A stretch of 32,466 nucleotides of DNA from a virus (IMGVR_UViG_3300012943_000022:1-32466); one strand, 5' to 3'; positions 2,466 through 30,746 are shown, counted from the stretch's first letter. Program-made: numbers and translations. The notes: generated by a model from the letters alone, not told the origin.

Positions 2466-2471
2466 TATTTA
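2466..2471 (-). promoter_or_regulatory. TAAATA late-type promoter core for the terminase operon
   Basis: cATAAATAt on the minus strand, 38 nt upstream of ATG 2428. Confidence 0.7.
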
Positions 2472-2514
2472 TGCCCCGAATATGTTAAGTGGCCCCCGAT
2501 CGAGGGATGGCCCC

Positions 2515-2523
2515 TGGTATAAT
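2515..2523 (+). promoter_or_regulatory. Sigma70 extended -10 promoter (TGnTATAAT)
   Basis: TGGTATAAT is a perfect extended -10, about 30 nt upstream of ATG 2555. Confidence 0.7.
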
Positions 2524-2554
2524 TGCACCATTGATTGATGATGTGGAGATTGAA

Positions 2555-3355
2555 ATGTCTGACGCGAGATTGAATGGCCTCCACGGGGGCGGCGATAGCA
2601 ATGTCAGTAAGCAAGCGATGAGCACGGCCCTGAGGATGCGCGAATTGGTGAAGTCGGGGCATTGGTCACCGATACCGCACTTCGACGACAGGATCGTGAA
2701 GACGGGACGCATGACGTACCCAGAGGTATTCGAGATCATCGCGAATGGCACGATATCCAATGCCAAGCCGGTGCATAACCAGTTCAGGATGAAGTTCGTC
2801 CTGGGAAAGAAGGCCGTGATCTGCGCCACTTCGATGATCGGTAGGTCCGACCCGGATCACATATTCAACGGCGGAAGGGTGCTCCTCATCACCTGCTTCA
2901 ACATCGACGATTGGGGGCTCGAGGAGAACCAGAGCATCCAGTATCCGCTCAAGGAAGTCGTGGTGCGCGAGAAGGTGGTGGAGCGCGTAGTGGCGAGGCC
3001 CATCGAGGACATGACCGAGGAGGAACTCGAGGACGAACTCAGGCGCCGTCGCGAGACGAGGGAGGCCGAGAGGATGGATGCCCTGAGGCGCAGCCGTGAG
3101 GCGATATCCCTCGAGGTCCAGGACCTGGAGGCGCGGCTCTCGGATGCGAAGGCGCGCCTCAGGGCAGTGGCCCAGGAACTCGGGGGGGGGGGGGGTAGTG
3201 AGACACCTGAGAGCAGTTCCGGCAAGTTGTCCGCGCTGACGCGCGAGGAGTTCGTATCAAGCACGATCGCCGGCCTGGCCGAGAAGTACGGCGTGTCGAG
3301 GCCGGCGATTTACAACCGGGCCCGCCGAGCCGGCTGGTCCAAGGAGGAGATGTGA
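2555..3355 (+). CDS. Coiled-coil protein with C-terminal helix-turn-helix (putative regulator)
   Basis: GGAG RBS before ATG 2555; charged coiled coil; C-terminal TIAGLAEKYGVSRPAIYNRARRAGW HTH; G14 tract in the linker. Confidence 0.7.
   Translation: MSDARLNGLHGGGDSNVSKQAMSTALRMRELVKSGHWSPIPHFDDRIVKTGRMTYPEVFEIIANGTISNAKPVHNQFRMKFVLGKKAVICATSMIGRSDPDHIFNGGRVLLITCFNIDDWGLEENQSIQYPLKEVVVREKVVERVVARPIEDMTEEELEDELRRRRETREAERMDALRRSREAISLEVQDLEARLSDAKARLRAVAQELGGGGGSETPESSSGKLSALTREEFVSSTIAGLAEKYGVSRPAIYNRARRAGWSKEEM
3182..3195 (+). repeat. G14 homopolymer inside CDS
   Basis: c-gggggggggggggg-t, encoding GGGGG. Confidence 0.9.
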
Positions 3356-3651
3356 GCAAGATCAGGATCACGATACTGCGCCGGGACGGCGACGCCATCT
3401 ACGATGCGGTGCATGCCCAGTACCTGGGCCAGGGCCGCGTCTTCAACACCCTCGAGAACGCGAGGAAGGACGGGGACGAACTCTCGAGGAACCCGATGGA
3501 CGACATCTTCAACTTCGAGGTCCAGGCCGACGAATTGCTGGAGTTGGCAGACCTGTTCCGCGCCCAGGGGTTCCCGTTCCAGGTCTCGATAGACCGGGAG
3601 TTGGTCTATGCGTACAGGGCCAACCTGTTCGGCGAGTGGAGCAGGAAATGA
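3352..3651 (+). CDS. Hypothetical protein
   Basis: GTGA overlap with the upstream gene; GGAGG RBS. Confidence 0.75.
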   Translation: MSKIRITILRRDGDAIYDAVHAQYLGQGRVFNTLENARKDGDELSRNPMDDIFNFEVQADELLELADLFRAQGFPFQVSIDRELVYAYRANLFGEWSRK

Positions 3652-3950
3652 CGAGGGACGAGAAGTACATCTGGGTGATCTCCGCCACGGGCGAGGAGAT
3701 CTGCATGAACGGAGCCAACTGGCTAACCACCGACGAGTTCGATGAACTCTCGGAGGAGCAGCGGGACGGGGTGAATGCCTCGATGAAGAGGGCGACGGAG
3801 TGGGCAGCGACCGAGGCCGCGAGGCAGTTCGTGGATGCCATGACGCAATCCGTCAAGGGCGTCTATGACTCGGGCTTCCGGCTCGGCTTCTCCATGGGCT
3901 GCGGCCTGATGACCGTCGTCGGGTTCATCGTAATGGCGATCGTCCGATGA
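3648..3950 (+). CDS. Hypothetical protein with C-terminal transmembrane helix
   Basis: ATGA overlap at 3648; hydrophobic C-terminus GLMTVVGFIVMAIVR. Confidence 0.7.
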   Translation: MTRDEKYIWVISATGEEICMNGANWLTTDEFDELSEEQRDGVNASMKRATEWAATEAARQFVDAMTQSVKGVYDSGFRLGFSMGCGLMTVVGFIVMAIVR

Positions 3951-4468
3951 GGAACGACTTCGTGGTCTATGCAGTGGCTGTCGATCCAGGCCGAGGGCCC
4001 CGGGATGAGGTCAGGTCCTACTTCGAGGTGGCCCTGTGCAACCCGAAGTACGACAAGAACGTCGGGACGGCAATCAGGGGATGCCACGCGTTCGGGGCAT
4101 CCTCCATACACATAGTTGGAGAGCGGTACAGGAGGCAGATGACGGACGTGTCCAACGGCACGAAGTGGATCGGCACCCAGCACTGGGCCGAGGGGGACAC
4201 GACGAAGGTCCTCGTCGCCGCGGAGTTGGCAGGCCTCGAGACCGTCGCCGTGGAGGTCGTGCCGTTCGTCGAGTGGCTCCCGGCCTTCGAGCACCCGACC
4301 AGGGCCCTCTACCTGTTCGGACCCGAGGACGGGTCCATACCCGAGGACGCGCTCGACATGTGCCGCAGGAAGGTCATGATACCCCAACTGTACGCCAAGG
4401 TGTGCCTGAACCTGGCTTCTGCCGTGAATGTCGTGCTGTACGACCGGATGTCGAAGGGGATGCGATGA
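3947..4468 (+). CDS. SpoU/TrmH-family (SPOUT) RNA 2'-O-methyltransferase
   Basis: NPKYDKNVGTAIRGCHAFG, YLFGPEDGSI and CLNLASAVNVVLYDR match the three SpoU motifs. Confidence 0.88.
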   Translation: MRNDFVVYAVAVDPGRGPRDEVRSYFEVALCNPKYDKNVGTAIRGCHAFGASSIHIVGERYRRQMTDVSNGTKWIGTQHWAEGDTTKVLVAAELAGLETVAVEVVPFVEWLPAFEHPTRALYLFGPEDGSIPEDALDMCRRKVMIPQLYAKVCLNLASAVNVVLYDRMSKGMR

Positions 4469-4686
4469 GCGTGTCCATGCCACCGAACTACGTGGAGATA
4501 CTTCTCGGCGCCTGCCCACACGTTTTCCGCGAGGGGATCTACATGTCCTGCGACACGGACAGGGAGGCCTCCGACTACCAGGACTTCTGCAGGTCCGTGC
4601 GCCTCACCGCGACACGGATATCCGCGCGTCGGGCCGGGGCTCCGGAGGGATACGAGAGGAAGATCTGGCTGTGGGTCCGCCGCTGA
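4465..4686 (+). CDS. Hypothetical protein
   Basis: ATGA overlap at 4465 (MSVSMPPNY...). Confidence 0.6.
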   Translation: MSVSMPPNYVEILLGACPHVFREGIYMSCDTDREASDYQDFCRSVRLTATRISARRAGAPEGYERKIWLWVRR

Positions 4687-4859
4687 CCTGCTCCTCATGC
4701 GGCGAGGACGCGGAATTGACCTATAGATCCAGGCACACTGGCGGGGAGTACTGCGACAGGTGCGGGTGGTTCATACACGACAACCTGACGACGGAGAAGG
4801 CCAAGAAGTTGGGCCTCCAGGGGCTGGAGAGGATCTATCCCTCGACCACCCGAGGTTGA
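4671..4859 (+). CDS. Small zinc-ribbon protein
   Basis: CSSC...YCDRC; in-frame GTG at 4671 after GAGAGGAAG; start uncertain. Confidence 0.55.
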   Translation: MGPPLTCSSCGEDAELTYRSRHTGGEYCDRCGWFIHDNLTTEKAKKLGLQGLERIYPSTTRG

Positions 4860-5113
4860 TGCGCCTGTGAGGACACGTCCGCAGCATCCACGATGACGGC
4901 GGGGGCCCTGCGGATCCTGGTTGTCCCGAGGAACGAGGTCCTGGTGCTCACCACGACGCCCCTGCGCTGCTTGACGATGTTGCTGGGCCAGCGCAGGCCC
5001 AGGCGGCGCAGTTGCCTCCTGAAGGTCTTTGTGCTGATCCCCAACTCGCCGCAGTAGTCCAACTGCGAGGTCCTCAGGGCCATCGCGTCCAACTGGGACT
5101 GTGTGTATGTCAT
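4835..5113 (-). CDS. Small basic HTH protein
   Basis: ATGA-coupled to the o-spanin; CGELGISTKTFRRQLRRLGLRWP HTH-like segment. Confidence 0.6.
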   Translation of the reverse strand: MTYTQSQLDAMALRTSQLDYCGELGISTKTFRRQLRRLGLRWPSNIVKQRRGVVVSTRTSFLGTTRIRRAPAVIVDAADVSSQAHQPRVVEG

Positions 5114-5352
5114 CGGCACGCGTCCAGGGACTGCCTCAGGGTCTCCTCGTAGGCGAGTGCGAGGATGCGGTCCGCGTACAGGGCCTTGGTGAGGTCGAAC
5201 GCGTCCGTGTATGGCGGTGAGAAGGCGTAGTTAGGCCTGTCGGGCTGCTCGACGGAGCACGGGACGCGGTACGGCACCTTTACCTCGACGGTCCTGGTGA
5301 ATGCTGAGCAGCCGCACAGCGCGAGCAGCGGGATGGCCCAGAGGATCCTCAT
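5110..5352 (-). CDS. o-spanin (Rz1-like lipoprotein)
   Basis: Signal peptide with lipobox MRILWAIPLLALCGC; Pro-rich VEVKVPYRVPC; directly follows the i-spanin. Confidence 0.8.
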   Translation of the reverse strand: MRILWAIPLLALCGCSAFTRTVEVKVPYRVPCSVEQPDRPNYAFSPPYTDAFDLTKALYADRILALAYEETLRQSLDACR

Positions 5353-5669
5353 CGGTTGAACTCCTTGAGTATCGTGTCGCACGAACCCTTCAACTTCATT
5401 ATCTCGGCGTGCGACCTCTCCGCCTCCGACTGCGCTGCTGCGGCCTGGGCCACCTTCTTGGCGGATGCCTTCTCGGATGCCGCCTGGTCCCTCTTGAGTT
5501 TGTCGATCGCCTCGTTCTGCGTCTTCACGCTCGCCTCGAGGTTCAACTTGCTGGCCTGGCACAACTTCAGCGATGAGCGTAGGTGGCCGATGTAGGCGAT
5601 GTTTGCCCCGATGAGGAGCAGGAACACGAGGGCCGCGATGATCTTCGCCTGGATGCCAGTGATCGTCAT
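5349..5669 (-). CDS. i-spanin (Rz-like)
   Basis: N-terminal TM (IIAALVFLLLIGANIAYI), then coiled coil QNEAIDKLK...; lies in the lysis cassette. Confidence 0.78.
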   Translation of the reverse strand: MTITGIQAKIIAALVFLLLIGANIAYIGHLRSSLKLCQASKLNLEASVKTQNEAIDKLKRDQAASEKASAKKVAQAAAAQSEAERSHAEIMKLKGSCDTILKEFNR

Positions 5670-6007
5670 ACCCCACCCCGGATGCCGTGGATGGCACAGT
5701 CGGGATTTACCTCGGTCTCGCATGAGCATTCCGGCTCGTCGGGGACCTCAGTGGCAATCGTCTCCTGGTTCTTGTGCGTCTCGCTGCGCGAGCGGCTGAA
5801 CCAGAAGGCCACGATCGTGACCACGGATCCGGTGAGGACGGCGAGGAGCATCTTGACGATCTCGAGCGCCTCCTTGGGATCCATCTTCTCGGAGGGCGGC
5901 ATGAACGAGTGCAGCGTCCAGAAGAACGCGCCGATGAATAGGACCGAGAGCAGTATCTGTGCGAAGCCGAGGAAGAACCCGGTGGTGAGGTGGAACTTCT
6001 TGCTCAC
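5666..6007 (-). CDS. Putative holin (two TM helices)
   Basis: Two hydrophobic segments and VAFWFSRS ending; sits between endolysin and spanins. Confidence 0.65.
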   Translation of the reverse strand: MSKKFHLTTGFFLGFAQILLSVLFIGAFFWTLHSFMPPSEKMDPKEALEIVKMLLAVLTGSVVTIVAFWFSRSRSETHKNQETIATEVPDEPECSCETEVNPDCAIHGIRGGV

Positions 6008-6288
6008 TTGCGGTCCTCGTAGAGTTTGTCGTAGAGGCGCGTCAGTTGCGCGTCCATCCTGTCGGAGAAGGAGCCGATGCTCTTCTCGATCTTGTTGAAC
6101 GACTGCTGGTCCGTCTCCTCGTGCCTCAGCAGGCGGGAACTGAGTTCCGAGACCCTGTCGTTGAGCCCGTCCAACTTCGCGTCCGTGAGTTCCTTGCTGG
6201 ACTTCACGGTCTCCTTCCAGAGGTAGCCGATCACGACGAGGACCACGTTGGTGCAGATGCTGATGATGCCCACTGTGTTCGCGTCCAT
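6004..6288 (-). CDS. Single-TM coiled-coil lysis-cassette protein (holin/antiholin-like)
   Basis: ATG 6288 overlaps the endolysin stop; N-terminal TM followed by coiled coil. Confidence 0.6.
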   Translation of the reverse strand: MDANTVGIISICTNVVLVVIGYLWKETVKSSKELTDAKLDGLNDRVSELSSRLLRHEETDQQSFNKIEKSIGSFSDRMDAQLTRLYDKLYEDRK

Positions 6289-6746
6289 CACGCCACCTCG
6301 GTGTAGCCGACGCGGCCCTGGGGGTTGATGGTGCGCGCCAGGAGGAACTGCCTGCGCGGCTGCTTCCCGTCGTCCGCGAGGCCGATATGGACCCACCTGC
6401 CGAACTCGTCTATGACCTGGTCGAACCTCGGGAGCGCGTCCCGGTTCTCGCGGATCCAGGCGAACAGTTCCGTCGTGGTCATACCCACGACCCTGAGGTC
6501 CGCTGCGAGGGCCTTCATGTGGGCCGATGTCTTAGAGCCCCCGACCTTCTCGTTAGTGGCGAGGGACCTGTACCCGCTGGACAGGACCACCGGCTTCCCG
6601 ACGAGATCCCTGAAGTGCTGGAGTGCCTCGGCGAGCCGGGCCAGGTTGGGGTAGAGTTCCCTCGGGATCGTGTTGTCGTACGCGTACCGCGCGGCGGTCT
6701 CCGAGTACTCGAACTCCGCGAGGGAGAAGTTCTTGGTTAGTTGCAT
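6288..6746 (-). CDS. Endolysin, peptidase M15A family
   Basis: LTKNFSLAEF...SSGYRS...VGGSKTSAHMKALAAD...FDQVIDE..WVHIG, with the Zn-binding H/D/H pattern. Confidence 0.9.
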   Translation of the reverse strand: MQLTKNFSLAEFEYSETAARYAYDNTIPRELYPNLARLAEALQHFRDLVGKPVVLSSGYRSLATNEKVGGSKTSAHMKALAADLRVVGMTTTELFAWIRENRDALPRFDQVIDEFGRWVHIGLADDGKQPRRQFLLARTINPQGRVGYTEVA

Positions 6747-6795: not shown

Positions 6796-6801
6796 TATTT
6801 A
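6796..6801 (-). promoter_or_regulatory. TAAATA promoter core for the lysis cassette
   Basis: gGTAAATAg, 50 nt upstream of the endolysin ATG. Confidence 0.65.
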
Positions 6802-7294: not shown

Positions 7295-7675
7295 TTACTC
7301 GAGCGTGGTGACATTCTTGTTGAGGGTGAATGTCCCCTGAAGGACCCTATAGACCGTGTCCGGATCCGCCGTCTTGTAGATCTCCAGGTCGTGGATGAAG
7401 TCGGCGAACTCGTCGCGTATGTTGGTATTTATCGTGTTCGCGGGGAGCAGGGCTATAGATACGCGACCTACCACCCCGTCCATGTGGAGCGGTAGCAGCC
7501 CGTTCTCGGTGCTCAGGGTCATGATGATGTCTGGCTTCCGGTAGGACTTGCGCACCTGCATGCGAGCGGCGTATCCGCCTCCAACCAGGTCCAGCGGCTC
7601 TCCGCCGCGGGTGATGAGGATGTGCTCCAGGTACGTCGCGCCCTGATCAACGGTTATGTCGTGTCTAAGTGCCAT
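7295..7675 (-). CDS. Ig-like beta-sandwich virion protein (LtfC/p132-like fibre-attachment type)
   Basis: ITVDQGATY...PLDL.GY.ARMQVRKSY...RVLQGTF pattern. Confidence 0.55.
   Translation of the reverse strand: MALRHDITVDQGATYLEHILITRGGEPLDLVGGGYAARMQVRKSYRKPDIIMTLSTENGLLPLHMDGVVGRVSIALLPANTINTNIRDEFADFIHDLEIYKTADPDTVYRVLQGTFTLNKNVTTLE
7426..7431 (-). promoter_or_regulatory. TAAATA promoter core (intragenic) upstream of 6825-7265
   Basis: gATAAATAc. Confidence 0.55.
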
Positions 7676-7693: not shown

Positions 7694-7699
7694 TATTTA
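7694..7699 (-). promoter_or_regulatory. TAAATA promoter core overlapping the TAA stop of 7697-9661
   Basis: tGTAAATAc, 19 nt upstream of ATG 7675. Confidence 0.55.
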
Positions 7700-9661: not shown

Positions 9662-11988
9662 CAGACACCCACCTCTGTCTCGTACGGGTCAGGGAGGTCG
9701 AACGAGCCGAAGCCCACGGTTAGGGTACCGTCCTCGTGTCCTGGCGTGTCCTGCGAAAGCATATTCTCTCCGATGAACTCGTCGAGATCCACCTCGACCC
9801 TATGAACGAGCGTGAGCCGCTTGGCCCTGAGCCCCCTGTTCGTGGGCTCCTCCTCGATGTCAATGACCTCCGAGGACACGACCCACTCCTCGTCCCTCTC
9901 CGCGATGGAGAGCACGGAGGCCCCGTAGATGGTATTTATGGCCCCGACCTCGAGGATCGTCTGTCCCAGCACGACATCCAGGAGGGCGACGTGGGCCACG
10001 GATTGTACCCCTATCGGCACCACCTCGTTAAGTGCGGGCCCGACCGCGGAGTACGATACGGAGGACCCGTCCGCGTGGATCGATACCAGCATGGTCGCGT
10101 TGGATGTTGAGTAGGCGGCGATGGATGTGCCGACGGCGATCGTCTCATCGATTTCGACGGACTGCGGCGAGTGCGAGATCGACGAGGATGGGATCTGCAC
10201 CGTGCTGTCGTTGATGGTCCCGATGGACCAGTTCTGGATCTGCAACTGGGCCACCCCAGCGAGGATGGTCGTCGGCAGGAGCGCTCCCGCCGCCTGGTGT
10301 GAGATCGACGAGGACGGGATCTGCACGGTGAGGTAGGACCTGACGGACTGTACCTGCGTCGAGTACGTAGAAGACGAGGCCGGCAGGAGCACCCTCTCGT
10401 TGATGGTAGGGGCGAGTGCTCCGGACGAGTAGGCGAACCTCTGGAACTGGACGACATCCACGATGTTCGGCAGCGGGTAGTTATGGACCTCGCTGAGCCA
10501 GAACTGGATGGTCGTGGATGCGAGAGGCATCGAGATCGGCGAGAGCACAGAGAAGTCGTGCCCTGAGTAATCGACGGATCCGCCCGGGATCTGGACGTAC
10601 GCCACCGGCGGGACCTGCCACTCCTGCGGGTCGTGCTGGATCGACGAGGCGTCGATCAGGATCGCCTCATTTACGGCGCTGGGCTCCGTGGATGCCAGCA
10701 CGTTCGCGACCGATGCCAGCACGTTCTCGGCGACATACGGTGCGTTCTCGACGTACGTCGCGGAAGCAAGGCCCAGGTGTAGGATTTCGTGCAGTTCTGG
10801 CCCGACGGGCGAGAAATCGACGCCGGATGGCTCCTGGGCCACGGTCTCGTTGATGGTTGGCTCGGATCCGGTGAATTCGACGGAGGACGGGTCCGTCGGG
10901 AGGGCCACGACTACGTCTGGTGGCTGCTCTGAGAAAGATACGTCCGATGCATCGGCGAGCATGGTCTCCGAGACGTGGAAGTCCATCGGATCGTGCTCGA
11001 CTGCCTCGTGCCCGAACGGCAGCACCGCTCCAGTGAGTACTGACGGCTCCTGCTCCGAGTACGCCACGTCAGACGCGTCGAGGTGCAGTACCTCGTCGAG
11101 TTGCGGCTCCACTCCTGTGAAGATGGAGGATGCGGATGGGGCCTCGACCTTCTCATGGACCAGTGGGTCCAGTGCGGAGTAGGTGGATGAGGACGCGTCC
11201 TGAGGAACGACCGTCGTGATGACGATCTCCTGGGTCTGCGCGTCGAATGCCTCTGATCCTGCGGGTGCGTGGATCGCCTCATTTACGGTCTCTGCGAGAC
11301 CCGTGAAAGTCGATGATGCTGCCGGGGCGTGGATTGCCTCCGAGACGAGTTGCGTCTGACCTGTGAAAGTCGAGGATGCCGCAGGGATGGCCACGGTGAC
11401 GACGGTAGGCCCGCTGAAGGCCATGATCGCCGCCGTGTGCGAGTAGGCACCGCCTGAGGCGAAGGTCCAGTTGCTCGGCACGTTCCCTGTGGCCCAGTAG
11501 GCGAACCGGTTCGAAGAACTGTTCGGATTGTAATTGGCGGAGGATCCGCCGGTCGGGCCACCGCTGACGCTCCACCCGGTGTTCGTGGAGAGGGTCCTCA
11601 CGCCGACGTACCACTCGGCCGATCCTGGGGTTCCCGTTGCCTGCGTCGTGCCTGACGAGTTTCCGAGACCAGCGCTGCCGACGAACGTCGCCCCCGCCTG
11701 CGCGAACTCGAGCACGACGTACCCGGTCATGTTCGATATCGACGCGAACGTGGTGGATCCGGATCCGGTGGCGACGAAGTAGGCCACCCCGCCCATTGCA
11801 GGGGACGTGCTCGAATTCACGGCCACGACCGTGCCGCGGGACGAGGTCAGCGCGGTGTCTGTGGATGCGCCGAGCCAGATGAGGACGTAAAGGTACCCGC
11901 TGACGGCGGTGAAGGAGGCCGTGGCGGACCGGGCCGTACTGTTGTAGGACCAGTCATTGATGAGTACTGAGGGTGTTGGCAGTGCCAT
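9661..11988 (-). CDS. Virion protein, paralogue of 7697-9661, with about 25 degenerate 20-aa repeats
   Basis: [20 protein letters not shown]-type units; 60-bp DNA periodicity visible near 11270-11390. Confidence 0.7.
9933..9938 (-). promoter_or_regulatory. TAAATA promoter core (intragenic) upstream of 7697-9661
   Basis: cATAAATAc. Confidence 0.5.
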
Positions 11989-12015: not shown

Positions 12016-12021
12016 TATTTA
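12016..12021 (-). promoter_or_regulatory. TAAATA promoter core upstream of 9661-11988
   Basis: aATAAATAc, 28 nt upstream of ATG 11988. Confidence 0.65.
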
Positions 12022-18788: not shown

Positions 18789-18792
18789 GACA

Positions 18793-21228: not shown

Positions 21229-21241
21229 CCCCCGCCAGCGC

Positions 21242-21843: not shown

Positions 21844-21870
21844 TTGGGCTCTCCTATTATTCTAATTGGT

Positions 21871-21899
21871 GGGCAGGGAGAGCGCATCTCCCCTACCCC
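21871..21899 (-). terminator. GC-rich hairpin in the 21844-21927 intergenic region
   Basis: GGGCAGGGAGA / TCTCCCCTACCC imperfect stem; weak U-tail, so terminator function is uncertain. Confidence 0.35.
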
Positions 21900-21924
21900 G
21901 ACCGGCTAAGGTCGTATTCGAATG

Positions 21925-21930
21925 TATTTA
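21925..21930 (-). promoter_or_regulatory. TAAATA promoter core overlapping the TAA stop of 21928-22323
   Basis: tGTAAATAc. Confidence 0.55.
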
Positions 21931-22323
21931 CACCACGGTCCGTTCCCCAGAGAGGATCTGCTGGAGGCGCGCGTCGAGCCACGCCGCTGGGCCGATGAGC
22001 CCGTCGGGACGTGCCTGCGTGGGCATGCCGGTGATGCCGTTCGGGGCCTGGAACGACCCGCCCCACACGCCGTTGGACTTGATGTGCCTTCCCTCCTCGA
22101 GTACCCCGATGTACGGGACGAGGTTCTGGAGCACGCCACCGTCGCTGTCGAGGATCAGGTCCCAGCCCTCCATCGCGGTCCCCGCGTGGTGGCCCTTCGC
22201 GTCCTTGCCGTACGGCGTGGCGACGATGACCTGCTGCTGGAACTCCCGGAGTTCCTTGGATATGTCGAAGGACGAGAGGTCCGGCCCCTCATCCACCTCG
22301 ACCTCTATGCCCCAGTCGGCCAT
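21928..22323 (-). CDS. HK97 gp10-like neck/tail-completion protein
   Basis: VIVATP...GTAMEGW...QNLVPYIGVLEEG...SFQAPNG; start reassigned to ATG 22323. Confidence 0.7.
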   Translation of the reverse strand: MADWGIEVEVDEGPDLSSFDISKELREFQQQVIVATPYGKDAKGHHAGTAMEGWDLILDSDGGVLQNLVPYIGVLEEGRHIKSNGVWGGSFQAPNGITGMPTQARPDGLIGPAAWLDARLQQILSGERTVV

Positions 22324-23228: not shown

Positions 23229-23254
23229 TTGGAATTACCTCTTCAGTATGTGGG

Positions 23255-23260
23255 TATTTA
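23255..23260 (-). promoter_or_regulatory. TAAATA promoter core for the tail tube gene
   Basis: cATAAATAc overlapping the stop of 23258-23653, 27 nt upstream of ATG 23228. Confidence 0.7.
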
Positions 23261-23653
23261 TGCCTCGAAGGCGATGTACCCGGTGTCTATGGGGGCCATC
23301 ACCCAGGCCTGGCCCGTGATGATCTGACCCTGGTTTGAGTTCTCGATGTATAGCCGCGCCCCGCCGCCCATGTCCTCGATGGTCTGCTCCAGTCCGCCGG
23401 AGATCAGGCCGCAGATGCGGTCCAGTTCCTCGGATCCCCTGGCCGCCGGGTAGAAGACCTCGACGTGGTAGTTGCCGGACCAGCGCTTGAGGCCGAACCC
23501 GGCCTTCTCGGTGGCCCTGTTGTCGAGCACGGTCCTGAGCCACGGCTGGCCCGCCTTGGTCTCGTAGCGCTGGCCCTCGACGACCACGTCGATGTCCTCG
23601 TCCTCGAGGATTGCCTGGACCAGAGTGTTGAACCTGCCCCTGATGTCGATCAC
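23258..23653 (-). CDS. Tail terminator-like protein
   Basis: PWLRTVL...GNYHVEVFYPAARGS; immediately upstream of the tube gene. Confidence 0.7.
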   Translation of the reverse strand: MIDIRGRFNTLVQAILEDEDIDVVVEGQRYETKAGQPWLRTVLDNRATEKAGFGLKRWSGNYHVEVFYPAARGSEELDRICGLISGGLEQTIEDMGGGARLYIENSNQGQIITGQAWVMAPIDTGYIAFEA

Positions 23654-23967
23654 TGGTTGATCCCCAGCGCGTAGTAGATGGCCCCGGTCAGGTCGGGGTC
23701 CTCGAACTTGACGGACGCGATGTTGAACCTGCGCTTCTGCGGGCCAACCACGAGGTAGTCATTGACCTTCGGCTCCCGAGAAGTGGGGGTGATGTACGCG
23801 GTGTGAGAGTGGTGGATGACCCCGTCCTGGCCCGCCTTGTCGTTCGGCGTGATGGTGCAGGTGCATTCGCTGCGCTTCCCGTCCGCGTGCTCCACGACCG
23901 CGGACGCGCCGTTCGCGTGTATCAGCCGGATCGCGGCCCTCTTGAGTTTCCTGGCGAGGCGGGACAT
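23650..23967 (-). CDS. Head closure / head-tail joining protein
   Basis: Start reassigned to 23967 (MSRLARKL); AIRLIHANG...EPKVNDYL...AIYY; synteny. Confidence 0.65.
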   Translation of the reverse strand: MSRLARKLKRAAIRLIHANGASAVVEHADGKRSECTCTITPNDKAGQDGVIHHSHTAYITPTSREPKVNDYLVVGPQKRRFNIASVKFEDPDLTGAIYYALGINQ

Positions 23968-24413
23968 CAGGCCCCCCTGGACTGCGTGAGCCCGCCCGTG
24001 CCCTCGACGAAGATCGGGGATAGGATCATCTGGATGTAGGAGAGGTCGCCGAGGTCCTGGTGGCCCGACGACTTGTAGGTGTATGACGCGCTGAGGGAGC
24101 CGATGCTCTCGGTGCTCTGAACCACGGCGCCCGAGGACTGCTCGCGCACGTCGTAGTCGTCGTATATGAGGGAGGCCATCTCGACCGTCGCCTCCTGCAG
24201 TTCCGCGGGGATCTCGTCCGCGTCGTAGTCGGCGAGGAGCGATCCCCACCTGCGATCGATGAACTTGGTGGCCTGGATGAGGAGTTTCTCGAGTTCGGGC
24301 CACGCCTCCGGCGATCCGCCGTCGCCCTCGGTGGGCAGGTCTATGTCGTACGTGTCCGCGTACTCTATGGCGAACTCGACGGTGCAGTAAGAATTGACTC
24401 CCAACTCGATCAT
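23967..24413 (-). CDS. Head-tail adaptor (DnaT-like annotated family)
   Basis: NSYCTVEFA...LIQATKFID...IPAELQEATVEMA...ESIGSLSASY; follows the capsid gene. Confidence 0.75.
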   Translation of the reverse strand: MIELGVNSYCTVEFAIEYADTYDIDLPTEGDGGSPEAWPELEKLLIQATKFIDRRWGSLLADYDADEIPAELQEATVEMASLIYDDYDVREQSSGAVVQSTESIGSLSASYTYKSSGHQDLGDLSYIQMILSPIFVEGTGGLTQSRGA

Positions 24414-24435: not shown

Positions 24436-24441
24436 TATTTA
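24436..24441 (-). promoter_or_regulatory. TAAATA promoter core restarting transcription after the capsid terminator
   Basis: cATAAATAc, 23 nt upstream of ATG 24413. Confidence 0.7.
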
Positions 24442-24507: not shown

Positions 24508-25371
24508 TTAGACCGGGACATCTACCGCGGCGACGGAGCGCACGCTGTGGATGGCGATGACCGCGTCCAGCGTGACCAGGGCCGTCCAGGCATCCTTGCC
24601 CTTCTCGACCGGGATCTCGGCGAACGTGAAGCGGCCGCTCTCCGGCTCGATCGCGACCGTTCCGGAGGTCTCGTCGGCCACGATCGCGTAGAGGCGGTTC
24701 GTGTCCGGGGAGGCATCCACGGTCGAGATGAAGTCGTTGCGGACGAACGGCATGCCGTCGTACGCCAGGAAGTACTGGCCGTTCAGTTCGACGGTCGTGA
24801 CGCCGCCGGAGGTGCGCATCTTGGCCTTGATCTGGTTCTCGACGTACGCGTTGCCCATCAGGAACACGTTCTGCTTCTGGTACAACTTGGCGGATACCGC
24901 GTCGATCGAGGCGAGGATCTCGCCGGAGACGTTTGCGGCAACCTGGCCCGAGTTGGCGGACAGGAAGGTGTTCAGGGTGGAGACGATGGCCGCCTGGAAG
25001 GAGTACGTGGCCTGCTTGGCGCCGGCCGCGATGGCGATGTCCTTCTTGTTGGCCGCACCCTGCGCGCCCGCAGAGCGGAGGTCGCGGTTCGGGATGCTGT
25101 GCGTGCCGGAGTACGAGACGAACGGCGCAGCGATCTGCGTGCTCGTGATCGCGGTCCCGGCGGTGATCGTGCCGTCGGCCGCAACCACCGCGCCAGCGCC
25201 GATGTCGGACAGGCGGTTGTAGGTGTAGGCGGAGCCGGCGGAGGTGATCCACGGCAGGAAGGCGTCGAGGCCCGGTGCGACCTTGGTGTAGAGGTCGATC
25301 AACTGCGTCTGCAGGTCTGCAGGTACGTACTTGGCGCTCTCTGAAGTGCTGAAATCTACGAATGTAGCCAT
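24508..25371 (-). CDS. Major capsid protein (putative)
   Basis: 287 aa; follows the scaffold; strong GAGG RBS; terminator downstream; AYTYNRL and YDGMPFVRNDFI motifs. Confidence 0.75.
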   Translation of the reverse strand: MATFVDFSTSESAKYVPADLQTQLIDLYTKVAPGLDAFLPWITSAGSAYTYNRLSDIGAGAVVAADGTITAGTAITSTQIAAPFVSYSGTHSIPNRDLRSAGAQGAANKKDIAIAAGAKQATYSFQAAIVSTLNTFLSANSGQVAANVSGEILASIDAVSAKLYQKQNVFLMGNAYVENQIKAKMRTSGGVTTVELNGQYFLAYDGMPFVRNDFISTVDASPDTNRLYAIVADETSGTVAIEPESGRFTFAEIPVEKGKDAWTALVTLDAVIAIHSVRSVAAVDVPV

Positions 25372-25394
25372 TTGGATTTACCTCTGTTGGGTCG

Positions 25395-26057
25395 TCAGAC
25401 CTTGTTCTTGAAGAAACTGATGGATCCTGACTTTCTCTCGGACCCTGGTGTATTTATGCTCAGTCCCTGGCCGCCGCCCCTCTTCTGGGACAGTCCGGGG
25501 CCCGTGGTGGGCTTCACGAAGTGGGGGGCCTTCTTGAGGACCTCTGCGAGCCACGCGGACACGGTCAGGGGGTTGCCCTTGCCGTCCTTCTTGTCCCCCT
25601 TGGCCACGACCTTGCCCTCGTCATCCACGTCGAACTCCGCGGATGCGCGGACCATGAGGTCGTCGTACGCGCTGTCATAGACCCCGAGTTCGGAGCCGGC
25701 CGCGCGCAGCGTGCCCCCGAGGAAGTACTTGGCGGTCGTGCCGCGCAACTTCTCGTTCTGCTGCTTGATGGTGGTGGTCTCGCCCTCGTGGGTCTCCTGC
25801 ATCCTCTTGATGACCTCCTCGGACTTGGCCCGGGCCATCTCGTCGATCTTCTTCTGGAGCCCGTCAGGGGTCAGTTCGGTGGCCCCGCCGAGGAACTTGC
25901 TGAACGCGCCGAGGGTCTCGTTGCTCTTCAGCAGGTTGGTGTTGGTGGTGCGGAACTCATCGACCTTGGTCTTGAGTTCGCTGTAGGCCTTGTCGTCGTG
26001 GAGCACGCCCTCGTGCTTGACGAACTCGCCCTTGTCGTTCTGTACGTAGTAATCCAT
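25395..26057 (-). CDS. Capsid scaffolding protein
   Basis: Charged coiled coil KVDEFRTTN...; GNPLTVSAWL...APHFVKPTTGPG C-terminus typical of scaffolds. Confidence 0.75.
   Translation of the reverse strand: MDYYVQNDKGEFVKHEGVLHDDKAYSELKTKVDEFRTTNTNLLKSNETLGAFSKFLGGATELTPDGLQKKIDEMARAKSEEVIKRMQETHEGETTTIKQQNEKLRGTTAKYFLGGTLRAAGSELGVYDSAYDDLMVRASAEFDVDDEGKVVAKGDKKDGKGNPLTVSAWLAEVLKKAPHFVKPTTGPGLSQKRGGGQGLSINTPGSERKSGSISFFKNKV
25451..25456 (-). promoter_or_regulatory. TAAATA promoter core (intragenic) for the capsid gene
   Basis: cATAAATAc, 80 nt upstream of ATG 25371. Confidence 0.65.
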
Positions 26058-26106
26058 GGTCTGTACCTCCGGTACTTCAGTTGGCCCTCTGGGCCGGTTG
26101 TGAAAC

Positions 26107-26112
26107 TATTTA
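26107..26112 (-). promoter_or_regulatory. TAAATA promoter core for the scaffold gene
   Basis: aCTAAATAg overlapping the stop of 26110-26421. Confidence 0.6.
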
Positions 26113-26421
26113 GTAGTCGAACTCGATCTCCGCCTCGACGTACTGCAGCCCGAGGGACCTCAGGGACCTCTGGACCGAGCGCATCAGCGCGGCCTCGTCG
26201 AAGTAGCCGAGCCCTATAACGTAGGACGCGTACTCCGCGGAGTTGTGGGCCACGAGTTCGTCCCCGACGAAACCCACGTCCCAACTGTCGGCGAAGTGGC
26301 CCGTGTCGAACGGGCTCCCGTCGATGCAGTCCTGCCAGGCCCACGCCGCGATCACATCCCTGTCCGACGGGAGGAGGTCCTCCGCGAGGTCGAAGGACAC
26401 GGTCAGGTTCGCGTCGCTCAC
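26110..26421 (-). CDS. Second HK97 gp10-like morphogenesis protein
   Basis: SPFDTGHFADSW...HNSAEYASYV resembles the PVDTG.L..SW...N..EYA.YV motif. Confidence 0.6.
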   Translation of the reverse strand: MSDANLTVSFDLAEDLLPSDRDVIAAWAWQDCIDGSPFDTGHFADSWDVGFVGDELVAHNSAEYASYVIGLGYFDEAALMRSVQRSLRSLGLQYVEAEIEFDY

Positions 26422-27746
26422 GCCGAGGGCCTCGCGACCCTCGTGGTGCTGGCGGAGTTCTGGGCCACGACCTCATCCACCTTCGCGTTCGCGTCCGCCT
26501 CGGACATGCCCAACTCGCGGTAGTAGTCCTGGCGCGAGCCGAGGTTCATGCTGATGCGCTTGATGTGCATCTCGTCGAACGAGGCCCTGTCCGCCGGGTT
26601 CTGCGGCTTGCCGTCGAGCGAGAGCGCGATGGTCGTAGGGCCCGAGATCTGGGACACGAGTTCGAGGGCCCCGTTCAGGGCCGCCTGCATCGCGTTCTGG
26701 ATGCCCTCGAGGGACGCGGTCTCGGCGGAACTGCGGATGGCGAGGGCCTCGGCGCTCTCCACGCCGGACTTGTTCGTCAGCAGGCGCGAGCCCGCGGCGT
26801 AGATGCGCTCCTCGATGTTCTTGAGTTCGGACTGGATGATGGACGCGCCGGACCCGCCGACCTCGACGTACGAGAGTTCCGCGTCCTGCTCGATGTGGCT
26901 GATGTTCTTGGTGGATCCGACATAGACGTGGCCCGTCTCCGTCTCCCCCGAGGTGTTCGTCGATGAGTACATCGCGCCCTTGAGGGTGAGGGTCGGCAGG
27001 GCCATGAAGTGCTCGTAGTGCGCGAGGTCGCACGACATGCGGAAGTGCTGGATGTTGAGTTGCGCCTGGGTCAGGAGCGGCGGGGCGAAGGCCTCCCACG
27101 TGTCGTCGAACGGGTTGCACGGGAAGATCGGCAGGCGCACGAGGGGCTCGCCGCGCACGACCAACTGCGGCAGTTCCACGGAGACCCAGTCGGACTTCTT
27201 GGTGGCCCTGGACCACTCGCGGACCCTGTACTGGCCCTCCTCGTCGAGGTAGTGCTCCGTGAAGATGGACTGGCACAGCATCTCGAAGAAGTTGTCGGGG
27301 TTCCTGTACTCGCGCACGTCGTGGAAGACCACGCGGTCGTCGGACCAGTTGATGCAGTCGTCGGCGGAATAGACCACCAACTTGCCCTTGCCCCCGTCGC
27401 CGAGGCCCACCACGAAGATGGCCCGGCTCGTCAGGAGCACGTTCTTGTATGATATGTTGAGGAAGGCGCCGACGTCGGAGAACTCGGTCTCGAACTCGCC
27501 CGTGACCACCGGGTCCGCCGCGGATAGGGTGCCGACGAGCGCGCTGAGGGTGGGGGCCACCACGTTGTTGTAGCCGGTCCTCGTGAGGTAGGCCTGGCGC
27601 TCCATCTCGGTCTGGCCGTCCAACCTCTCGACGTAGTCGAACACGTCCCCCGAGTACGCGTCCCTGGTGTTCTTGCTGCGGGCCACGATGGCCTCGTAGT
27701 CCCTGTGGGCCGTGCCCGGGTTCAACTTGCTGGATGGCTTCGCCAT
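26418..27746 (-). CDS. Portal protein (DUF4055-like)
   Basis: 442 aa; AYLTRTGYNN, YSADDCINW, PPLLTQAQLNIQHF, VESAEALAIR; located upstream of scaffold and capsid. Confidence 0.85.
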   Translation of the reverse strand: MAKPSSKLNPGTAHRDYEAIVARSKNTRDAYSGDVFDYVERLDGQTEMERQAYLTRTGYNNVVAPTLSALVGTLSAADPVVTGEFETEFSDVGAFLNISYKNVLLTSRAIFVVGLGDGGKGKLVVYSADDCINWSDDRVVFHDVREYRNPDNFFEMLCQSIFTEHYLDEEGQYRVREWSRATKKSDWVSVELPQLVVRGEPLVRLPIFPCNPFDDTWEAFAPPLLTQAQLNIQHFRMSCDLAHYEHFMALPTLTLKGAMYSSTNTSGETETGHVYVGSTKNISHIEQDAELSYVEVGGSGASIIQSELKNIEERIYAAGSRLLTNKSGVESAEALAIRSSAETASLEGIQNAMQAALNGALELVSQISGPTTIALSLDGKPQNPADRASFDEMHIKRISMNLGSRQDYYRELGMSEADANAKVDEVVAQNSASTTRVARPSA

Positions 27747-27752: not shown

Positions 27753-28220
27753 TTACTTCCTACCTCTGGTGGATTTGGATCCCCTCTGGGGATCCTTGCT
27801 GATTGTATTTATGCCCGGGTTGATGTTGATCTGGCCCACCAGGTGCTCCAGGTGGTAGGCGAAGGTCTCCTGGTTCTTGTAGGAGGTGGGCACGGACGCG
27901 TAGTTGAACACGTGGAACACGGCGTGCGTGAGTTCGTGGATCAGGCACCCCAGGTCCGCGCGGTCCAGCCACACGAGCACGGCCCCGTCTATGCCTATCG
28001 TGTATCCCCTGGAGGTGCTGCTGATCTTCGCGATGTCGTCGGCGAACTGGGCCACGGTCTCCGGCCCCAGTCCGTGCTGGTCCCTGAGTTCCGGGAGGCC
28101 GTCGATCGCCTCCCTCGGCGTGCAGTCGAAGGTGAGATACACGGAGCCGGGCAGGGCCCCCATGTCGAGCCGCTGGTACCGCGGGTAGTCCTGCTTAGGT
28201 TGCCTCTTCGACGATCTCAT
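27753..28220 (-). CDS. HExxH metallopeptidase-like protein
   Basis: LIHELTHAVFHV...QETFAY; likely start at ATG 28220. Confidence 0.65.
   Translation of the reverse strand: MRSSKRQPKQDYPRYQRLDMGALPGSVYLTFDCTPREAIDGLPELRDQHGLGPETVAQFADDIAKISSTSRGYTIGIDGAVLVWLDRADLGCLIHELTHAVFHVFNYASVPTSYKNQETFAYHLEHLVGQININPGINTISKDPQRGSKSTRGRK
27806..27811 (-). promoter_or_regulatory. TAAATA promoter core (intragenic) for the portal gene
   Basis: cATAAATAc, 60 nt upstream of ATG 27746; followed by the hairpin GGATCCCC/GGGGATCC (27777-27795). Confidence 0.6.
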
Positions 28221-28447: not shown

Positions 28448-29032
28448 TCAATCTCCTATGGTGGTATTTACGCCATGGACGTGGATGCGGAGGTCCGGAG
28501 GGCGGACCGCGAGCAGGTTGATGAACGCTGATCGCCAGCGCTCCATCAGTTCCACGCCCTTGGAGGGCTCGTGCGCCTTGCCCTCGGGGTAGTGCCTCCC
28601 GTATGACGTATTACGCTCAGAGAGGTGGTCGAAGCCGAGCAGGTGGATCTCCCTGTGGCCCAGCAGGTAGGCGAGGTTGATCGCGGCGTACCCGGAGTTG
28701 TGTCCGGTGAATAGGTGGCCCTCCGTCAAACTGAACCCCAGGTCCCCGTCGAACTGCCACGCCTCGAAGTTGGGCCACGGCGGGTCCATGATCGGTGGCT
28801 CGAACTGCCACCTGTGGTAGGTCCCGTGGATCACGCGTACGCCTGCGATGCACGCCATCTGGCCGTGCGTGGAGAGCCACGCCGCATCAGACGTGTAGCA
28901 CAGGTGCGAGCGAGCAGATGGTGGCACGCGACGCCAGGAGCCGTTTATGGAGACCACGTCGCGTCCGGAGAGGGTGGCCCAGTCGAACTCGGCCAGGGAC
29001 GATCCCCCGCCGACGATCCAGCAATCAGACAT
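28448..29032 (-). CDS. MptE-like / Maf (DUF115) nucleotide-sugar transferase-like protein
   Basis: CWIVGGGSSL...VVSIN...NSGYAAINLAYLLGHREIHLLGFD. Confidence 0.72.
   Translation of the reverse strand: MSDCWIVGGGSSLAEFDWATLSGRDVVSINGSWRRVPPSARSHLCYTSDAAWLSTHGQMACIAGVRVIHGTYHRWQFEPPIMDPPWPNFEAWQFDGDLGFSLTEGHLFTGHNSGYAAINLAYLLGHREIHLLGFDHLSERNTSYGRHYPEGKAHEPSKGVELMERWRSAFINLLAVRPPDLRIHVHGVNTTIGD
28465..28470 (-). promoter_or_regulatory. TAAATA promoter core upstream of 28195-28446
   Basis: cGTAAATAc. Confidence 0.55.
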
Positions 29033-29255: not shown

Positions 29256-29277
29256 GTGATCTCTCCCGGTTTGCGTG

Positions 29278-29283
29278 TATTTA
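29278..29283 (-). promoter_or_regulatory. TAAATA promoter core heading the leftward structural arm
   Basis: aATAAATAc, 23 nt upstream of ATG 29255. Confidence 0.65.
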
Positions 29284-29303
29284 TTGGGCCACAACGACAG
29301 AAG

Positions 29304-29400
29304 GCGCGCGCCAGTAGAAGTCGGTATTAGGGCCTGTGCCGACCCATCTCTCCCTTCTTGATTGTCTTTCTCTAACATAGCAACTTCTACTGGCGCGCGC
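29304..29400. repeat. Perfect 18-bp inverted repeat (imperfectly extendable) in the largest non-coding region; candidate origin element
   Basis: GCGCGCGCCAGTAGAAGT (29304-29321) / ACTTCTACTGGCGCGCGC (29383-29400). Confidence 0.85.
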
Positions 29401-29670
29401 ACCTTCGTCGAGCGAGGCGAAGCCGAGCGATGACCTGATCGAGCGGAGCGAGATCACTCGTCGATGCGCGAGCGGTCGTGGCCCAGTTGATCGACGGGCT
29501 TCGCCCTGGCTGCCGGAGCAGCCCGCTCAACTCGACCCGACGTCGTTCGGCGAGATCGATGGTTCAGGACAAGCAGGACCGAGGCAGATCGCCGTCCTTG
29601 CTAAGCGCTGCTGAACGACTTCGGGGAAAGAAAGTGGCCCAAAATATGTCGAAAAGATTTGGAACGCGAC

Positions 29671-29676
29671 TAAATA
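29671..29676 (+). promoter_or_regulatory. TAAATA promoter core heading the rightward cluster
   Basis: aCTAAATAg on the plus strand, upstream of 29832. Confidence 0.6.
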
Positions 29677-29705
29677 GATGTGTCATCTCGAAGACCCCAC
29701 GGGTC

Positions 29706-29824
29706 CTCCGATGTGATTGTTCGCTTCTTCTTGTCTGGGCTCATCACCCCCGGGGTCTGCTGATTACAGACCCCGGTAAGACATGGGAGCGTCCAGAGAA
29801 GAACAACAAGAACATATCTCGGAG
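29706..29824 (+). promoter_or_regulatory. Long imperfect leader hairpin covering the RBS of 29832
   Basis: Apex CCGGGGTCTG/CAGACCCCGG (29750-29776); base CTCCGA/TCGGAG; pyrimidine-rich and purine-rich arms between them. Confidence 0.55.
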
Positions 29825-29831
29825 TTAGAAG

Positions 29832-30335
29832 ATGAAGAACAAGTCCAGATCCGGCCGGAGGCCCTCCGGGAACAAACTCAAGTTGAGGCGCGTGGTCCAG
29901 TCGGAGGCCAACGTCGCCGTGTTCGCCAAGGCCATCGGCATCGCATACGCCCTGCACGCCGCGTCCAGGCCCAACAGCCGCATAAGGCACTCAATCACCA
30001 AGTCGTACCTCGCCTGCGGGGCGAACAGCGACGGCCGCAAGGCCCTCGTCAGGCAGGCGCACGCCGTCTTCTTCGACAGGGTGCGCGTCGGCAACGAGAG
30101 GGTGGGCTGCAGCACGTACCGCGTCAGGCGCGCCGTCGAGCCCAGCACCGTCGTGCGCGCGATGGCGATGCGCGTGGTGGATGCCAACAGCAAATTCACG
30201 GACCAGGGGGTGCAGTTCATCAGGACGCGTGGCACAACCGTGGTGAGGTACGAGTACTCGTTCGACGTCCCCAAAGAGGTGGCCCTGGGGATCGAGCGCA
30301 TCATAAATGACGGGCCGCAGGGGAGCAGATCATGA
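29832..30335 (+). CDS. Basic hypothetical protein
   Basis: GGAG RBS; ATGA overlap with the next gene. Confidence 0.7.
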   Translation: MKNKSRSGRRPSGNKLKLRRVVQSEANVAVFAKAIGIAYALHAASRPNSRIRHSITKSYLACGANSDGRKALVRQAHAVFFDRVRVGNERVGCSTYRVRRAVEPSTVVRAMAMRVVDANSKFTDQGVQFIRTRGTTVVRYEYSFDVPKEVALGIERIINDGPQGSRS

Positions 30336-30739
30336 TAACTACTGAGCAGTGGGACCTGAAGAACCGGGGTGGCTACACGCTGGGCCAGTGCCTTGGGACG
30401 ACGATAGACAAGATCCGCAAGGGCGCGTACGGGTGGTCCCTCGAGACCATGCACGCGCGCCTGGCGTGGGACTTCGGCGAGGGGTCCTTCGGGATCTCGG
30501 TCGAGGACCTGTACGAGGAGGCCGCGTCCAGGGACGACGGCTTCGTGAGGGTCGGCGGCGAGTACTACTGGAACGCGGACCCGAGGACCAAGGCGCGCCT
30601 CGAGGAGCGGGAGAACCTCTCCGCGGCCTACCGCGCCGCCACGAACCTGTTCGGCGTCCCGATCGACAACGTGGCCATGCTCGCGGCGGTGCTCGCGATC
30701 GAGGCGCGCAGGAAGTTGGAACGGGATCACGGCGGCTGA
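30332..30739 (+). CDS. Hypothetical protein
   Basis: Coupled start; codon usage matches the rest of the genome. Confidence 0.7.
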   Translation: MITTEQWDLKNRGGYTLGQCLGTTIDKIRKGAYGWSLETMHARLAWDFGEGSFGISVEDLYEEAASRDDGFVRVGGEYYWNADPRTKARLEERENLSAAYRAATNLFGVPIDNVAMLAAVLAIEARRKLERDHGG

Positions 30740-30740
30740 A

Positions 30741-30746
30741 TAAATA
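30741..30746 (+). promoter_or_regulatory. TAAATA promoter core upstream of 30792
   Basis: aATAAATAa, intergenic. Confidence 0.6.

Follow-up and report, generated by a model that had tools for sequence, protein, structure and literature searches.

TAAATA boxes resembling T4-type late promoters precede the virion genes of a small siphophage genome, a possible satellite of T4-superfamily phages

The DNA considered here, IMGVR_UViG_3300012943_000022:1-32466 (hereafter the window, meaning all 32,466 nucleotides), is a whole phage genome in which a single hexamer, TAAATA, recurs ahead of virion, packaging and lysis genes. Positions 32344..32466 are an exact 123-nt repeat of 1-123: the record is a circular assembly of the direct-terminal-repeat class, rated 100% complete, with a unit of 32,343 bp and a GC content of 63%. 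Gene coordinates come from a self-trained gene caller, and 52 open reading frames (ORFs) were scanned against PHROGs and Pfam, 24 of those also against NCBIfam. The families matched are terminase, portal, scaffold, capsid, connectors, tube, tape measure, a lambda-like tail tip and an M15 endolysin, with further matches to spanin-like genes, endonuclease VII, an HNH-like ORF, a SpoU methyltransferase and a sialyltransferase-like gene. By gene content the phage is complete for virion, packaging and lysis, having its own terminase, portal, scaffold, capsid and tail modules. On the minus strand lie the packaging genes (362..2428: terminase large subunit 362-1666, endonuclease VII 1666-1989, probable terS 1952-2428), a lysis cassette (5110..6746: a spanin-like pair, small membrane proteins including a likely holin, and the M15 endolysin), the siphovirus tail and connector genes (13618..24413: J, I, JAB, L, M, tape measure, chaperones, tube, terminator and head-tail adaptor) and the head module (24508..27746: major capsid 24508-25371, scaffold 25395-26057, portal 26418-27746). 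The terS label, given earlier from sequence alone, finds no family match in PHROGs or Pfam and is assigned by position only. The plus strand carries six orphan ORFs of 167, 135, 221, 163, 71 and 62 aa (29832..32347), none matching sigma or gp55, and after them, across the junction, the HNH-like ORF (9-422), which is named from its family match. Scans of the window for tRNAs and Rfam families found nothing.

TAAATA occurs 18 times in the window: 16 copies on the minus strand and two on the plus strand. The sequence-only reading had listed the same 18 sites, and each coordinate and strand agrees exactly; it had also claimed that every box is co-oriented with its downstream gene, which holds in 18 of 18 cases, at 18-271 nt ahead of the start codon. 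Five near-whole relatives (G001 to G005, 39-51% GC, the window being G000) were obtained by a capsid-alignment search of viral contigs and are drawn on for comparison. Seven boxes lie within genes and five supply a TAA stop codon, as reported, the remaining six being intergenic by our own gene calls. The intergenic boxes are those at 2466..2471 (minus strand, 37 nt ahead of ORF 1952-2428, which is followed by endonuclease VII and the terminase large subunit), 6796..6801 (minus, 49 nt ahead of the endolysin), 24436..24441 (minus, 22 nt ahead of the head-tail adaptor), 29278..29283 (minus, at the head of a 35-gene run and 22 nt ahead of ORF 29025-29255), 29671..29676 (plus, at the head of the orphan-ORF run and 155 nt ahead of ORF 29832) and 30741..30746 (plus, 45 nt ahead of ORF 30792-31457). 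Stop codons are formed, all on the minus strand, by the boxes at 7694..7699 (18 nt ahead of a phrog_1084 gene; 24 nt in G001, 17 nt in G004), 12016..12021 (27 nt ahead of a 775-aa gene), 21925..21930 (81 nt ahead of ORF 21571-21843), 23255..23260 (26 nt ahead of the tail tube; 25 nt in G001 and G003, 28 nt in G004, 27 nt in G005) and 26107..26112 (49 nt ahead of the scaffold gene; 28-82 nt in all five relatives).

The seven in-gene boxes, likewise on the minus strand, are found at 7426..7431 (in gene 7295-7675, ATA-AAT-ACC, 160 nt ahead of a phrog_644 gene), 9933..9938 (in gene 9661-11988, ATA-AAT-ACC, 271 nt ahead of a 654-aa gene), 18234..18239 (in the JAB gene, GGT-AAA-TAC, 201 nt ahead of tail assembly gene I; 169 nt in G001, 193 nt in G004), 20973..20978 (in a tail chaperone gene, ATA-AAT-ATC, 60 nt ahead of the tape measure; the same Ile-Asn-Ile codons in G001), 25451..25456 (in the scaffold gene, ATA-AAT-ACA, 79 nt ahead of the major capsid; ATA-AAT equally far from the scaffold end in G001), 27806..27811 (in the phrog_1365 gene, ATA-AAT-ACA, 59 nt ahead of the portal) and 28465..28470 (in the phrog_4603 gene, GTA-AAT-ACC, 18 nt ahead of an 83-aa ORF). 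The regulon had been called genome-wide. This is correct for most of the genome (three of the four gene runs start at TAAATA) and fails for the plus-strand run 2618-4859, which has no upstream copy.

One hundred dinucleotide shuffles of the window gave a mean of 0.53 copies (maximum 3; 0/100 reached 18), the second-order Markov expectation is 0.09, and TAAATA ranks first among 4096 hexamers: an earlier estimate of about two copies by chance was too high. One-mismatch neighbours of the hexamer are scarce (0-7 copies each), and 14 of the 18 boxes lie at most 100 nt from a start codon, compared with 14% of background positions (p=2e-9). The in-gene boxes had been said to use codons that are odd at this GC content. 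A codon-preserving check agrees: synonymous shuffling yielded a mean of 0.23 in-gene copies (maximum 2 in 1000) against the seven observed. Five of these read ATA-AAT-A, one GTA-AAT and one GGT-AAA-TAC; ATA-AAT encodes 6 of the 37 Ile-Asn pairs, in a genome where ATA accounts for 83 of 560 Ile codons and AAT for 35 of 379 Asn codons.

The relatives contain 16 (G001), 24 (G002), 23 (G003), 19 (G004) and 31 (G005) copies. A box precedes the scaffold gene in 6/6 genomes, and five have one 25-28 nt ahead of the tail tube. Both gene runs of G001, and both of G004, begin at TAAATA, and orthologous virion genes keep their boxes across 39-63% GC. The window and G001 use identical odd codons at the boxes in the chaperone and scaffold genes. 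The sequence-only reading saw no antisense copy, which is true and, with 0.03 expected, uninformative in the window; it becomes informative in the relatives, where antisense in-gene copies number zero in each of G001 to G004 against 2.3, 5.7, 5.2 and 2.7 expected (15.9 in sum) and 8 against 23 in G005. This avoidance of antisense copies suggests that the hexamer suffices to fire by itself. The rare codons kept at in-gene boxes, together with the antisense purge, argue for current selection. These two observations also speak against the view that the boxes are facultative, that is, that read-through or weak recognition by the host lets the phage grow a little without a helper, the boxes boosting expression in co-infection or being relics of an ancestral gp55 stage. 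Such use would fit G005, which keeps primase/helicase-like genes and shows weaker signals, and G002, which has several host-type TATAAT sites. In the window no host-type promoter was found at the head of the virion run; a sigma70 scanner returned three sites in total, a chance-level number. We consider facultative use very improbable.

How far the box extends beyond these relatives was examined with a portal survey of 79 loci, of which 42 (those of at least 9 kb) were analysed, enrichment being scored on the sense strand at p<0.01. At a portal identity of at least 30%, 8 of 12 loci are enriched (five of the 12 being G001 to G005); below 30%, 1 of 30 (some of them near-duplicates). A search of viral contigs with a single capsid had given no match before the alignment search succeeded; the window capsid had no tblastn match among 50,697 phage records, and neither the capsid alignment nor the portal of G020, a proviral relative described below, found a relative among GTDB genomes.

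T4 late promoters cover positions -13 to -6 (PMC1524935), so that +1 would be the sixth base after the last A of the box. Inspection of the window by eye first drew attention to a pyrimidine-purine (YR) step, for which offsets 2-11 were then tested: at offset 6 it is present in 12 of the 18 boxes (p=2e-4), the other nine offsets all giving p>=0.14. The same offset carries the step at 31 of 59 boxes in G001, G002 and G004 taken together, the relatives rated 100% complete (p=1.5e-5), and in the gp55 phages T4 (18/32 full TATAAATA sites), ACP17 (12/24) and pf16 (13/31). Across 77 sites in four genomes no base is fixed at -25 to -14, and there is no -35 or upstream consensus. The box thus behaves, as had been proposed, like a late promoter that consists of a lone -10 element and keeps the spacing of T4: it has the YR signature, lacks an upstream element and is avoided in antisense in the relatives. 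Strict sense orientation near gene boundaries would fit just as well an RNA-level or packaging signal (a processing site, a protein-binding site or a translational enhancer). This we find scarcely credible, because the YR step falls at a fixed 6-nt offset, that of the T4 +1, divergent box pairs head both gene runs, and the boxes lie anywhere between 18 and 271 nt from the start codon. That the TAAATA boxes are promoters we take to be close to certain.

If the boxes are late promoters of T4 type, the same form should be found in phages that encode gp55. The gp55 gene was confirmed by profile in pf16, PhiW-14, ACP17 and DLP6, and the same relaxed hexamer is enriched 6-21-fold in all four of these GC-rich gp55 phages (observed against expected: pf16 31 vs 4.9, PhiW-14 23 vs 1.7, ACP17 24 vs 1.1, DLP6 17 vs 1.4). 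The full T4 TATAAATA octamer occurs at 0 of the 18 window boxes, where position -12 is A in 11, G in five, C in two and T in none, and C stands at -5 in 12 of 18. The four gp55 phages likewise show mixed bases at -13 and -12, with C the commonest base at -5 in three, and the late box of Aeh1, CTAAATA, is relaxed at -13/-12 as in the window (PMC2988020, PMC7892883, PMC1524935). Flank-profile correlations with the window range from 0.26 to 0.58 for the four gp55 phages and from -0.35 to 0.19 for three controls, figures that carry no significance test. In enrichment and in its mixed -13/-12, the form of the box therefore matches that of GC-rich gp55-encoding phages, and it is very probable, judging from sequence and spacing, that the boxes are read by a gp55-type factor.

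No TAAATA regulon was found in five cultured phages with distant virion genes (21-32% identity). Ab18 has two copies against 0.12 expected, one per strand (rank 433), and DoCa5 has two; the first 40 kb of CRP-6 and eiAU hold 5 vs 8.7 and 10 vs 14, and Vibrio 1.165.O 21 vs 28. Effie (45+46) and Shemara (17+12) are given as raw counts, with no expectation computed. The reversed pattern ATAAAT overlaps the motif and was discarded as a control. Phage rV5 was earlier reported to have a T4-like late motif, TggTAaAAtA, without gp55 (PMC3606486); as a counter-example it was rejected, since TAAATA is present 108 times against 90 expected, with no gp55 match. Comparison of the window proteins with those of T4, pf16, PhiW-14, ACP17, DLP6 and rV5 gave one match, to a 126-aa hypothetical gene. 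The phrog_1084 gene (7295-7675, minus strand) has its best cultured match, at 35%, in the gp55-encoding ACP17, and its family is also present in G001, G002, G004 and G020.

The reader might instead reside in the cell, as an alternative sigma factor of the host or the product of a gp55-like gene in its chromosome or a prophage, with no second lytic phage involved. Sigma70 requires A at -11, where the box in T4 register has T. The lack of a -35 or upstream consensus argues against a resident reader in the same way; the gp55 profile matches 0/14 control cellular genomes at E<=0.01, and the motif spans phages of 39-63% GC, which probably infect different hosts. A proviral relative exists, and endolysin matches, used in the search for a host, are scattered at 31-53% identity; both facts leave room for such a reader, but we judge it improbable.

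The gp55 profile (phrog_234) found nothing at E<=1 in six frames of G000 to G005 (T4 control, 2.5e-70), and a five-sequence gp55 profile run without filters on 2955 six-frame segments gave a best E of 2.8, with no window segment listed. Sigma70_r2 has no match in G000 to G004, and sigma families have none in 76 non-structural ORFs of G001 to G004 plus 100 further ORFs or frames. Scanned against PHROGs and Pfam, the 52 window ORFs gave no match to a polymerase, primase, helicase, initiator, integrase, sigma factor or RNA polymerase, and four further window frames gave no replication match; gp55, gp33, gp45 and replisome genes found no match in the window, nor was the T4-superfamily gene set present. 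The earlier claim that no sigma factor is visible is thus sustained, and extends to replication genes: by profile search, neither the window nor four terminal-repeat relatives has a detectable gp55, sigma or replication gene. Replication families turned up in G005 only, as primase/helicase-like genes. The sole non-virion family common to three genomes (G000, G001 and G004), phrog_1365, lies behind TAAATA in each.

The run without TAAATA has a promoter of another kind. At 2515..2523 (plus strand) stands TGGTATAAT, the genome's sole TATAAT and a candidate sigma70-type host promoter of the extended -10 form (TG extension). Behind it, at 2555..4859 (plus), lies a likely early operon of six ORFs: a 245-266 aa protein, a 99-aa and a 100-aa protein, a SpoU/TrmH methyltransferase, a 73-aa protein and a Zn-ribbon. 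From this arrangement, 2555-4859 is likely to be an early, host-transcribed unit. The first protein combines a DUF4258/RelE-like N-terminal fold (an Atlas lead under its bar) with a helix-turn-helix (HTH)-like C-terminus, and the pairing of a RelE/DUF4258-like nuclease with SpoU/TrmH could be a translation-targeting module. Phage homologs of the SpoU/TrmH RNA methyltransferase occur mostly in large genomes (115-595 kb). In G001 a host-type TGATATAAT precedes a phrog_2267 gene (L026:15451-15758), a family absent from the window; in G002 the phrog_2267 gene is the sole run without TAAATA (L028:3513-4046), and it is possibly an early gene of both phages.

No gp55-type factor or replication enzyme being detectable, the phage likely depends on a co-infecting T4-superfamily phage: we think it probable that such a phage supplies the late factor and that the window genome is a virion-complete satellite. 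After entry, host sigma70 would transcribe only the small operon at 2555-4859. The boxes would be late promoters of the lone -10 kind, recognised by the RNA polymerase of the host when it carries a gp55-family sigma factor. Late transcription in T4 depends on gp55 and gp33 together with a gp45 clamp loaded on DNA, which couples it to clamp loading and replication (PMC2988020). A helper would give gp55, gp33, the clamp and probably its replisome, whereupon both divergent units and the internal boxes would fire. The satellite would then build and package its own particles, endonuclease VII possibly resolving branched DNA, and bring about lysis through the cassette that it encodes. As the full TATAAATA is missing from every box, a GC-rich divergent phage similar to DLP6, PhiW-14 or ACP17 is a likelier helper than T4.

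Several observations weigh against this reading. A at -12, a base that T4 gp55 holds in a pocket along with -9 and -8 (PMC7892883), is present in just 11 of the 18 boxes; the YR step is non-significant in G003 (7/23), G005 (10/31), PhiW-14 (7/23) and DLP6 (6/17); and the two AT-richest relatives, G003 (23 vs 15) and G005 (31 vs 51), lack clear overall enrichment. The primase/helicase-like genes of G005 mean that dependence for replication is not family-wide. No helper, host or transcript was found, and the window has no integrase or partition gene that would account for its meeting a helper. A private factor could hide among the roughly 19 ORFs, non-structural or unassigned, that match no family. 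ORF 29025-29255 weakly matches a 'transcriptional regulator' family (phrog_19880, E=1.7e-5), and satellites do not usually keep a complete lysis cassette. Finally, the autonomous Thermus phage Lalka27a has 16 late promoters made of a lone -10 element, yet neither a sigma factor nor an RNA polymerase is recognisable in it, its authors inferring a phage-encoded factor (10.64898/2026.04.20.719267); the pattern alone is therefore no proof of dependence.

With Lalka27a as precedent, the window could be an autonomous phage in which an orphan ORF, most plausibly in 2555-4859, is a private late factor, with replication by host enzymes and an unrecognised initiator. A host-promoter early operon whose first protein ends HTH-like is suited to this, as are the weak regulator match of ORF 29025, the lysis cassette without an integrase and the weakness of the structure tests: four of the ~19 orphan ORFs were examined by structure or features, and two single-sequence models (pLDDT 49 and 48) were of low confidence with empty fold searches. 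Yet the ORFs of the early and plus-strand units, including all six early ones, have no homolog in the five relatives although the promoter is common to them. ORF 2555, the largest early one, retrieved only itself among 5.8 billion proteins of similar length, and its fold lead is to a DUF4258/RelE-like nuclease, not to sigma. ORF 29832 also found only itself, and ORF 31454 itself plus one repetitive protein; the Atlas match for ORF 30792 scored under 0.8, and a sigma fold came up in neither of two Atlas searches. A private factor is further opposed by the position of phrog_1365, the only shared non-virion family, behind TAAATA itself, by the lack of a conserved activator site upstream of the box, and by the match in sequence and spacing to gp55 phages, which would require convergence. 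The Lalka27a box, TAGGGT, differs in fitting the host TANNNT pattern (10.64898/2026.04.20.719267). On this evidence we regard an autonomous phage with its own factor as unlikely.

Known systems resemble the window in part. With T4-family late promoters it shares a lone AT-rich box, the absence of a -35 element, the TAAATA core and a start signature 6 nt downstream (in the window a signature in sequence), and differs in being a 32-kb siphophage without a full TATAAATA. The Streptomyces satellites MiniFlayer and MulchRoom encode their own encapsidation machinery, lack key replication genes and have a virulent large helper (PMC10690885). The likeness lies in own encapsidation genes, undetected replication genes and, for MiniFlayer, no integrase; they measure 13-17 kb, whereas the window genome, twice as large, retains genes for tail and lysis, which Ando is described as lacking (PMC13587820). 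Dependence would here be written in the promoters; the words 'promoter' and 'sigma' never occur in the main text of the MiniFlayer paper (PMC10690885). On gene content, the window genome would belong with the phage satellite viruses, a kind for which MiniFlayer and MulchRoom were the first examples. The virophages Sputnik, Mavirus and Guarani combine, as the window may, an own virion with the helper's late promoter motif upstream of satellite genes, and have an integrated form awaiting the helper, to which the provirus G020 may be compared (PMC6723459). They differ in their eukaryotic hosts, giant-virus factories and non-tailed capsids, without homology, and their dependence has been shown by experiment; the window motif is common to gp55 phages as a class. 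The late genes of satellite P4 respond to the late factor Ogr of P2, but P4 encodes an Ogr homologue (delta), a primase-helicase and an integrase and takes P2 structural proteins, the reverse of the window (PMC8628076). With full head and tail modules and no integrase or replicase found, the window departs from the P4, PICI, PLE and cf-PICI types. The sequence-only reading had set it against satellites that steal structural proteins: such theft indeed does not fit the window, but the contrast was overstated, MiniFlayer and MulchRoom already encapsidating themselves (PMC10690885) and P4 late genes already answering to Ogr (PMC8628076). In its available text, a 2026 review of large-phage hyperparasites names only ICP1 satellites, MiniFlayer and a genomic island (PMC13359090), and the full-text literature, which leaves most subscription journals outside, yielded no account of a small phage whose genes are placed under gp55 promoters.

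The provirus-class relative G020 (33,455 bp, 66% complete, portal 37% identical) has 14 plus-strand and two minus-strand boxes and no gp55 match. Its ORF scan covered two end stretches, outside the middle 13.5-22 kb (31 of 37 ORFs against PHROGs, 23 against Pfam): no sigma or replication family appeared among the scanned ORFs, the matches being to a tyrosine-integrase domain, three GIY-YIG ORFs, a ParB-like protein and a terminal H-NS gene. An integrated form would offer some clade members a way to wait for a helper. G020 also has a gene of the TAGT / beta-glucosyl-HMC-alpha-glucosyltransferase family (L208:1457-2365), which, like GIY-YIG, is typical of T-even phages. We lean slightly towards the broader view that tailed phages of 30-37 kb, both lytic and proviral, form a widespread clade of true virophages of bacteria, complete in structural and lysis genes but silent until a T4-superfamily late sigma factor and clamp arrive and then diverting both to their own virions. 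Most of the phage satellites known so far take capsids or tails from their helpers, and the few that encapsidate themselves have no described mechanism of dependence; the clade points to a concrete one, parasitism of the late sigma factor and clamp of a lytic phage. If this is true, T4-like phages, major killers of soil and water bacteria, gain a class of parasites; complete small phage genomes without replication or regulatory genes or a cultured relative are explained; isolation would be expected on plating with a gp55 phage present; and proviral members would serve as a helper-triggered anti-phage system.

Among the listed sequencing runs a soil metagenome, which may be the source, is the only one with the window sequence, and no RNA run is listed with it. 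Contigs of run X1 span 12467-32466 at a depth of ~8-12, with no readable integration joint in that part; a single base at 30827 is absent from one low-depth X1 contig (depth 2.7 of 12), which may be an error.

Between the two divergent boxes, 29290..29665 is a structured non-coding stretch (DNA fold z = -5.4), not conserved in G001, which its structure and position make a candidate origin or cis-element. As a shared helper-like element it was rejected: it has no similarity to G001, cultured phages or six large phage genomes. It includes a 21-nt element (29410-29430, plus strand) around a GCGAAGC core, which we take to be a mini-hairpin. Fourteen unrelated contigs of viral origin, 6-68 kb long, contain exact copies, mostly without nearby boxes, and none is present in G001 to G005; a gp55 search of these contigs gave no match anywhere.

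Although G001 is the closest relative, its terminase (L026:6323-7681) shares only 25% identity with the window terminase (362-1666); those of G003 and G004 share 35-36%, which suggests a swapped packaging module. Sugar-related accessory genes sit among the late genes, at 28448-29032 in the window and at L026:7668-12069 and 16181-16696 in G001: the set comprises sialyltransferase-like genes, a DAHP-synthetase-I family gene and a methyltransferase.

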